A DNA stretch of 60,636 nucleotides. It comes from Promethearchaeota archaeon Loki_b31 (GTDB taxonomy: Archaea > Asgardarchaeota > Lokiarchaeia > Sigyniarchaeales > SOKP01). The stretch is taken from NCBI GenBank assembly GCA_005222975.1, contig NJBI01000014.1, positions 1-60,636 of the forward strand, written 5' to 3'. The position numbers and the translations under genes are program-made. The notes under the pieces are model-generated. The model saw only the letters and a list, made by a program, of their open reading frames with translations, made no database searches and was not told the DNA's origin. Below are positions 39,682 through 40,165 of this stretch, piece by piece (position 1 is the stretch's first letter; every line of letters starts with the position of its first letter).

Positions 39682-39760
39682 TTCATTTTAATAATTTTTA
39701 TTTTTTTTTTCTTAGCATTTTTTTAAATCGAAATCTTTTTAAGGTTATGGTTTATTATAG

Positions 39761-40124
39761 GTGTTAGTTATTCAAAGTCATTCAAGCTAACAATTAATTT
39801 TGGTACGTCCAATGTGTGGCAGATACCTTTAAAAAACATTAGCAGGACGGCGACAGAATGGACACCCTCCCATATCTTAAAACACTAGGCCATCGCTTTA
39901 GCGAGGAGCTTATAAATAAAAATTAGGGCACGACCCAGAGAGGCCGTCTAATGGCTTTATAGCTGATTCCATTTATATAATGGAATTTTTCGAAACATTG
40001 GCTCATGAGGGTAAGGATAAGGTAGGGCTCTACCACTTATAGCTTGAGCTATCAATTTTTGAGGTTACTTGCTCGTTCTGTTTAAGAAAAAAAGTTTAGT
40101 GATTAGAAGCGAACTTTAGTTCGC
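39761..40124 (+). ncRNA. Unclassified structured non-coding RNA candidate
   Basis: About 42% GC over 39801-40080 (hand count) versus about 13% in 39681-39740. More than 10 nested helices with G-U pairs on the + strand, no convincing ORF, and an upstream TATA-like TTTTTAAG. Confidence 0.6.
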
Positions 40125-40147
40125 AAGGATTTTTTTTTATTTTTTTT
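40109..40147 (+). terminator. Hairpin plus oligo-T terminator
   Basis: GCGAAC-TTTA-GTTCGC followed by long T runs at 40130-40147. Confidence 0.6.
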
Positions 40148-40165
40148 ATTTAATCATCTTAAAAT

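Follow-up and report, generated by a model that had tools for sequence, protein, structure and literature searches.

Between two convergent genes of the Asgard archaeon Promethearchaeota archaeon Loki_b31, a 49-aa rubredoxin-like ORF on the + strand and an 864-aa ORF (the GH20 side) on the - strand, lies an ORF-free gap of 484 bp (39682-40165 in the window, which here means the whole stretch of 60,636 nucleotides that was analysed). The question raised by this locus is what kind of RNA the gap encodes, and how that RNA came to lie there. The G+C content of the gap rises to 0.45-0.48 at 39800-39949, compared to only 0.20-0.26 in the flanks and at the gap edges, and a reading made from the sequence alone had proposed an unclassified, structured non-coding RNA on the + strand. 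Unclassified it is, as no Rfam family reaches its gathering score anywhere in the window, and a search of a 551-nt region in which hits up to E = 10 were admitted returns unrelated sRNAs as its best matches (E = 1.2-6.5). The interval 39695-40131 can be interpreted with good confidence as a non-autonomous, ORF-less derivative of an IS110-group IS from Lokiarchaeial Asgard archaea, bearing a bridge-RNA gene that works as a guide.

The RNA and its conserved fold

The TATA-like motif and the hairpin with oligo-T end named in the sequence-only reading are both present. The former (39736-39743, + strand) is conserved and lies in a promoter-like region within the left end (LE) of the unit (39720-39760, + strand), which is itself conserved among copies of the window's sub-family and plausibly acts as a promoter, with a putative transcription start near 39760-65. 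The latter is a hairpin with a TTTA loop (40109-14 / 40119-24) followed by T9. The conserved motif and the terminal hairpin with its T9 together suggest that the RNA is transcribed.

The minimum free energy of the whole molecule is no better than that of shuffled sequences (z = -1.45 on the + strand and -1.79 on the - strand), so the excess folding stability that had been anticipated is not found, and the structural support is therefore drawn from covariation and not from energy. An alignment of 26 distinct copies yields a consensus fold of 12 helices, including one pseudoknot, in which 87% of the cells are paired, compared to 32-46% after a shift of the partners by 1-3 columns. Compensatory pairs, with both sides changed, number 42 against 26.5 in column shuffles, and cells changed on both sides number 199 against 69, with 0 of 500 shuffles reaching the observed value for either measure. 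The + strand reading is further backed by homologues whose downstream gene has the same orientation, and with this covariation they bear out the proposal of a structured, G+C-enriched non-coding RNA on that strand.

All features of the fold are given for the + strand. A long-range helix, H1 (39767-39782 with 39950-39966; 14 pairs, 9 of them changed on both sides in the alignment, and 91% of cells paired), encloses two sub-domains. The first is closed by a stem of 4-5 bp (39786-39789 with 39840-39843; 94% paired, with compensatory changes in two lineages) that opens into an 11 x 11-nt internal loop and is capped by the hairpin H2 (39802-39827). The cap is hypervariable in sequence and always paired, each of its 7 pairs being changed on both sides, and the window sequence adopts this stem, loop and cap in isolation. 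The second sub-domain (39845-39949; z = -2.3 when folded alone) is closed by H3 (39845-51 / 39943-49; 98% paired, 4 pairs changed on both sides) and contains a hairpin at 39854-78, the helix H4 (39887-90 / 39908-11; 96% paired) with its inner TCGC/GCGA hairpin, one of the candidate guide segments described below (RDG) and the GGG/CCC helix H5 (39926-28 / 39934-36). The loop of the 39854-78 hairpin (39864-39870) reaches out of this domain and pairs with 40006-40012 as a pseudoknot, paired in 87% of cells, whose strands are nearly invariant such that covariation is sparse (2 pairs). Beyond H1 lie the hairpin H6 (39966-39986), with 6 of 6 pairs changed on both sides, and a 3' domain (40006-40055) comprised of the 3' strand of the pseudoknot (40006-12), a tentative guide segment (40012-22, discussed below) and the hairpins H7 (40021-25 / 40030-34) and H8 (40040-43 / 40048-51), which the alignment fold provides along with H5 and the 39854-78 hairpin.

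The helices that had been paired by eye fare unevenly against this fold. The TCGC/GCGA and GGG/CCC helices, the helix ATTCCATT/AATGGAAT and two 3' hairpins near 40021-40051 recur with covariation or conservation in the 26 homologues, and ACCCTC/GAGGGT does pair, as the pseudoknot and not as the nested helix that had been drawn. Six further helices fall away because, in the covariation of the 26 copies, their strands lack conservation or pair elsewhere: 39762-69 / 39785-92; CGTCC.../...GGACG; the long-range GACAGAATG/CGTTCTGTT, which the sister copy on contig C78 lacks; GGCCA/TGGCT, which had been thought to close a junction; GGCCGT/ATGGCT; and the AGCT.ATAA/TTATAGCT arm. The real long-range helices are 39767-82 / 39950-66 and 39845-51 / 39943-49. 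The view that the RNA is not a riboswitch is shared here.

A dispersed element in the terminators of host genes

The RNA had been viewed as the product of a single host gene between rubredoxin and GH20, a view that overlooked the repeat nature of the unit; it is instead carried by a mobile, multi-copy element and is homologous to an IS110 5' leader. The element spans about 440 bp (limits ~39695-40131), and its copies are dispersed among unrelated flanks, with homology between copies that starts and stops sharply at 39689-40150 (left limit 39689-39695). In this genome, BLAST recovers 2 complete copies (contigs C38 and C78; 91% identity) and 2 that are cut by contig ends 127-131 bp into the unit, along with further copies in two sister genomes. 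Three of the copies of this genome are identical over the first 127-131 bp, the part of them that is assembled, and this identity suggests a recent spread within the genome.

With the window copy alone as the query, BLAST returns only close copies and T-tract noise, and the wider family was opened by using a copy from a sister genome (G005) and a class-B leader as queries. Homologous RNA is found in 18 of the 135 genomes of the taxonomic family, representing 10 of its 13 genera, often in several copies and often at contig ends. Distinct copies from genomes number 33, and metagenome contigs add 23, found by a motif scan whose pattern was checked on known loci; two motif scans of viral contigs gave chance matches in coding DNA only. 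Distribution within the genus of the window organism is patchy, with the RNA present in about 4 of 42 genomes, the present one among them, as RNA-only or truncated copies, and both copy number and location vary among genomes with no conserved neighbour. One sister genome (G005, contig C82; L010:1500-1545) bears a solo LE fragment, made up of the T-tract and promoter-like part and 98% identical to the first ~45 bp, which then gives way to unrelated DNA as a truncated remnant.

The sites themselves share a setting. Four relatives display empty sites, in which the GH20-type gene adjoins another gene across a T-rich terminator only, and in the present genome that other gene lies at the end of contig C93, where it passes directly into the element's initial 127 bp. 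Set against the empty sites, the occupied ones place insertion at the 5' edge of the terminator T-tract. The element carries its own T-tract at the LE (T3-A-T10-C), where the left junction and LE start (39695-39711, + strand) are complementary to the RNA at 39914-24, and the host T-tract follows the right end (RE) at 40132-47. A second insertion site of this kind is the rubredoxin terminator, and all other copies likewise reside in T-rich DNA 3' of stop codons. The empty sites, together with the overlapping footprints of two guide segments described below (LTG and RDG), point to a probable TT core at ~39695-96 of the left junction, in a T-rich context that blocks exact placement.

The assembly around these sites calls for some caution. 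Three left flanks, those of the rubredoxin gene, the C93 gene and a gene on contig C40, enter identical first 127-131 bp of the element (window 39689-39822, C93:8921-9047 and C40:1-131), only one assembled path leads through the element, and no contig begins with its 3' part. Synteny in the four relatives pairs the GH20-side copy with the C93 gene, and the rubredoxin-GH20 join may therefore be suspect; it may represent a collapsed or chimeric repeat assembly, or recombination between copies. The gene that follows rubredoxin in two relatives has a different context in this genome, and the right flank of the rubredoxin-side copy is ambiguous.

The identity of the element is revealed by its full-length form, found in related Lokiarchaeial genomes and metagenomes (6 genome and 11 metagenome copies), in which the ~300-nt RNA lies directly upstream of an IS110-family recombinase gene, 26-29 nt 5' of an ORF of 475-477 aa that is preceded by a ribosome-binding site. 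The ORF matches PF01548 (E = 1.6e-16) and PF02371 (E = 7.2e-18), and the homologues thus display a left-end RNA co-oriented 5' of a DEDD_Tnp_IS110 and Transposase_20 gene; the window copy is without the ORF. An A-run, a short hairpin and AAGGA follow the recombinase stop codon before T-rich host DNA begins, and in four genomes the very sequence of the window copy's 3' module is found immediately past the stop codon of the gene for the 477-aa recombinase. The RE of the window copy is 96-98% identical over 48 nt to those of the full-length metagenome elements L147, L152, L164 and L173, and its LE and RNA are ~73-76% identical to those of L147, L152 and L164. In this mini form, the RNA is joined to the same RE module (40085-40131, + strand: A-run, the hairpin 40109-14 / 40119-24 that folds with z = -2.0, AAGGA and the probable core TT) by a linker of 29 nt (40056-40084, + strand). 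The linker replaces the recombinase ORF in the alignment of mini and full-length forms, as a deletion scar, and has a motif common to other mini-elements. With its 3' module recognized as the right end of an IS, the window copy therefore consists of LE, bridge-RNA gene and RE with the ORF cleanly deleted, and one copy that retains ~40 codons of the ORF represents an intermediate state.

A protein query and both Pfam models detect no IS110-family recombinase in this 92%-complete assembly. The cognate enzyme turned up in 10 of the 135 genomes of the taxonomic family, and in none of the 41 other genomes searched in the window's genus, so the window copy may be stranded. The enzyme may be encoded on DNA that escaped assembly or binning, it may have been present for a time on a virus, a plasmid or a copy since lost, or the copies may indeed be stranded. 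Elsewhere in the family, the recombinase genes of several full-length copies (L063:1776-2264, L075:1170-1280 and contig C192 of genome G068) are broken by stops or frameshifts with the upstream RNA intact, and the RNA thus outlives the enzyme gene by more than one route.

Guide segments and the flanks of each copy

The RNA-flank relationship was assessed by asking how far the loops of each copy match its own flanks in preference to those of other copies, with the 23 metagenome copies serving as a hold-out set. A candidate left-target guide (LTG; 39791-39801, + strand) occupies the 5' strand of the internal loop of the first sub-domain and reads in the sense of the left flank. The LTG of the window copy matches the C93 flank at 11 of 11 nt, compared to a run of only 7 nt against its assembled left flank. 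Permutation of own against other flanks gives p ~1e-4 to 3e-4 in the first set and ~2e-5 over 45 copies, and p = 0.005 in the hold-out set, or 0.046 once one nested copy is removed. The candidate right-target guide, with its handshake portion (RTG; 39828-39839, + strand), occupies the 3' strand of the same loop and is antisense to the right flank; its reverse complement matches the right flank from the last bases of the RE onward, with a run of 7 nt against 40133-39 in the window, and the permutation gives p ~5e-5 in the first set, ~2e-5 over 34 copies and ~2e-5 in the hold-out set. The sub-domain thus presents an internal loop with a 5' strand sense to the left target and a 3' strand antisense to the right target.

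A third segment reads the element itself. The candidate right-donor guide, again with a handshake portion (RDG; 39914-39924, + strand), is antisense to the left junction and, in the window copy, pairs with 12 nt of its top strand at 39693-39704. Six RNA variants of the RDG each match their own DNA variant, the true assignment being the single best of 720, and the hold-out set gives p ~2e-5. All three associations persist in the mini-elements alone (LTG p = 2e-4, RTG 2e-5, RDG 2e-5), and none of the wrong-strand controls is significant. The targets and guides are A/T-rich and of low complexity, so that single matches carry little weight, and individual guide matches include informative G/C positions in runs of 9-12 nt.

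A left-donor guide is placed only tentatively at 40012-22, which resembles the end of the RE in sense (p = 0.0015 for 8-mers and 0.01 for 10-mers) in a comparison limited by an RE that barely varies. It lies in a different domain from the RDG, not opposite it in a shared loop. Another candidate for this role, at 39852-61 just 3' of H3, has the more canonical position and matches at 9 of 10 nt by eye in some full-length copies; it gives no own-versus-other signal and was rejected. The locus L145:1-600 (- strand) carries a complete mini-element directly after a partial copy of itself, and the partial copy breaks off precisely with the final base of its own LTG sequence. This looks like an insertion, or half-site recombination, into the guide-encoding DNA, which mimics the left half of the target.

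The RNA loops carry the sequences that flank each copy on either side, and it therefore appears to be the RNA that directs these elements to the T-rich ends of host genes. A mechanism can be proposed in which the element retains what such steering would require: an LE with internal promoter, the ~300-nt bridge-RNA gene and an RE of ~45 bp, with the gene for the 475-477-aa DEDD/Tnp recombinase deleted. The loop at 39791-39801 and 39828-39839 would read both halves of the target, in sense on the left and in antisense on the right, the single-stranded 39914-24 would pair with the element's own left end, and the tentative fourth segment at 40012-22 would mirror the right end. A recombinase that binds this RNA and is provided in trans would release the element in circular form, and the circle would then insert at the probable TT core in oligo-T terminators just past host stop codons; on this model the window copy itself may still be active or may be stranded. 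A bolder extension is offered tentatively, with the balance tipping slightly towards doubt. The ORF-less copies would then form a self-programmed transposon lineage of guide RNA only, in which each RNA names its own ends and landing site, a full-length element, a neighbouring cell or a virus lends the recombinase, the guides have changed independently across genera, and the lineage persists or spreads without a recombinase gene.

Alternative explanations and relation to known systems

It is improbable that the RNA is a structured 5' leader and nothing else, serving promoter or translation control of the IS110 recombinase, with the mini-element a passive relic, or one moved by recognition of its ends by protein, and the guide matches by-products of T-rich DNA of low complexity. 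A role of IS110 leaders in regulating recombinase expression is known, as in ISPpu9 (PMC12288879), the flanks and loops here are indeed A/T-rich, no recombinase was found in this assembly and the MFE z-score is weak. Such by-products would nevertheless be hard put to explain why own-copy matches exceed other-copy matches on the expected strand only, at G/C positions and in the hold-out set as well, why each of the six RDG variants pairs with its own DNA variant, or why the matches persist when mini-elements are taken alone. The patchy occurrence of the element (~4 of 42 genomes of the genus), its variable copy number and location with no conserved neighbour, its truncated remnants and its absence from the syntenic position of this site in close relatives bear on another reading, that an ex-transposon RNA gene has been domesticated as a host small RNA and kept, in genomes without the recombinase, for regulation or to guide another protein. 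These features, and guide loops that still match the flanks of their own copies as would suit a parasite and not a host gene, make domestication very improbable, despite promoter-like and terminator-like signals of the RNA's own, a fold that is intact in a genus without detected cognate recombinase, and near-identical copies within the genome.

A reading as a housekeeping RNA, RNase P/MRP-like and very divergent or of another kind, draws on the size of ~370 nt, the multi-helix junction and a loose resemblance to CR-II, and is now scarcely conceivable. The sequence that resembles CR-II falls in a hairpin specific to the present family, and the archaeal RNase P model finds no match in the window, nor any in the 551-nt region when hits up to E = 10 are admitted. 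The same model (RF00373) scores 125 bits, against a cut-off of 84, at C91:31620-31943, and this canonical RNase P RNA on another contig removes the RNase P/MRP reading; mobility, multiple copies, absence from most relatives and homology to an IS leader likewise speak against it. The lack of an SRP signature had been noted correctly, as the archaeal SRP RNA model (RF01857) has no match in the window. Its best match in the genome, at C65:10873-11177, reaches 45.6 bits, below the cut-off of 96.5, so that this lineage seems to have an SRP RNA that departs unusually far from the Rfam model. The proposal of a novel Asgard ncRNA holds only in the sense that the RNA is an undescribed variant of the bridge-RNA class.

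The preferred reading, a bridge-RNA element bereft of its recombinase gene, finds its closest parallel in IS621. In published bridge RNAs, the 5' strand of the loop is the sense of the left half-site and the 3' strand is antisense to the right half-site, and the guides extend over the core as handshake guides (Durrant et al. 2024, PMC11208160; Hiraizumi et al. 2024, PMC11208158). The present RNA resembles that of IS621 in these strand rules, in a segment antisense to its own left end and in guides that cross the junction (PMC11208160, PMC11208158). As with the bridge RNAs of IS621 and IS110 elements, the RNA of the full-length relatives is encoded in the LE and co-oriented upstream of a DEDD and Tnp recombinase gene, and site-specific insertion without terminal inverted repeats is shared with the IS110 group. 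The differences are considerable. Compared to the IS621 RNA of ~177 nt, the present RNA extends to ~300 nt and has three domains, a long-range enclosing helix, a pseudoknot and loop strands of 11 nt, and its RDG and candidate left-donor guide occupy separate domains whereas the donor guides of IS621 share one loop. Insertion is into oligo-T terminators of an archaeal host, at a core that is probably TT where IS621 has CT, and the window copy is without any recombinase gene.

MITEPpu9 of Pseudomonas putida offers a second parallel (PMC12288879), being a short non-autonomous module bounded by IS110-family ends that carries an RNA gene, is unlinked to a recombinase gene and is proposed to move in trans. 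The RNA gene it carries is that of the sRNA Ssr9 (ssr9), which is not the bridge RNA and is dispensable for transposition (PMC12288879), whereas the cargo here is the guide RNA itself, with loops that match the flanks of each copy; and P. putida possesses the recombinase, whereas the window genome and genus apparently do not. The present element is MITE-like only in being short and ORF-less and in having the same ends as an autonomous element from which it derives, since its aligned copies have no inverted termini and both ends are T-rich on the same strand. The seekRNA of the IS1111 group likewise guides a recombinase from the same family by means of donor and target patches, but it lies downstream of the gene, in elements whose ends bear subterminal inverted repeats, whereas the present RNA lies upstream and no inverted repeats are seen at the ends. 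A 2026 survey was restricted to loci adjacent to a recombinase (10.64898/2026.10.21.760802). The literature that could be covered, outside of which most subscription journals lie, holds no description of ORF-less elements with a bridge RNA as cargo, nor of the present Asgard family, and no archaeal bridge recombinase was tested in the papers found.

The most notable trait of the window element is that the RNA fits the flanks of its copy even though the recombinase gene is gone. Among known enzymes in which a single RNA programmes both DNA partners of a recombination, bridge recombinases are the smallest, and they are being engineered intensively. The present family adds an archaeal (Asgard) branch to them, with a much larger, pseudoknotted RNA and loop strands of 11 nt, and shows a natural use of gene terminators as safe landing sites. 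Elements that consist of a guide RNA only, with guides that match their own flanks, imply mobilization in trans, in which the spreading unit would be the RNA and not the enzyme gene; surveys confined to recombinase-adjacent loci would overlook them. For annotation, the family accounts for a recurrent orphan structured RNA in the intergenic gaps of Lokiarchaeial genomes and flags a repeat that breaks assemblies. The lineages within it may also have exchanged parts, as a mini-element from a metagenome (L149) bears the RNA and LE of one sub-family and an RE typical of another, a mixture that suggests recombination between element lineages.
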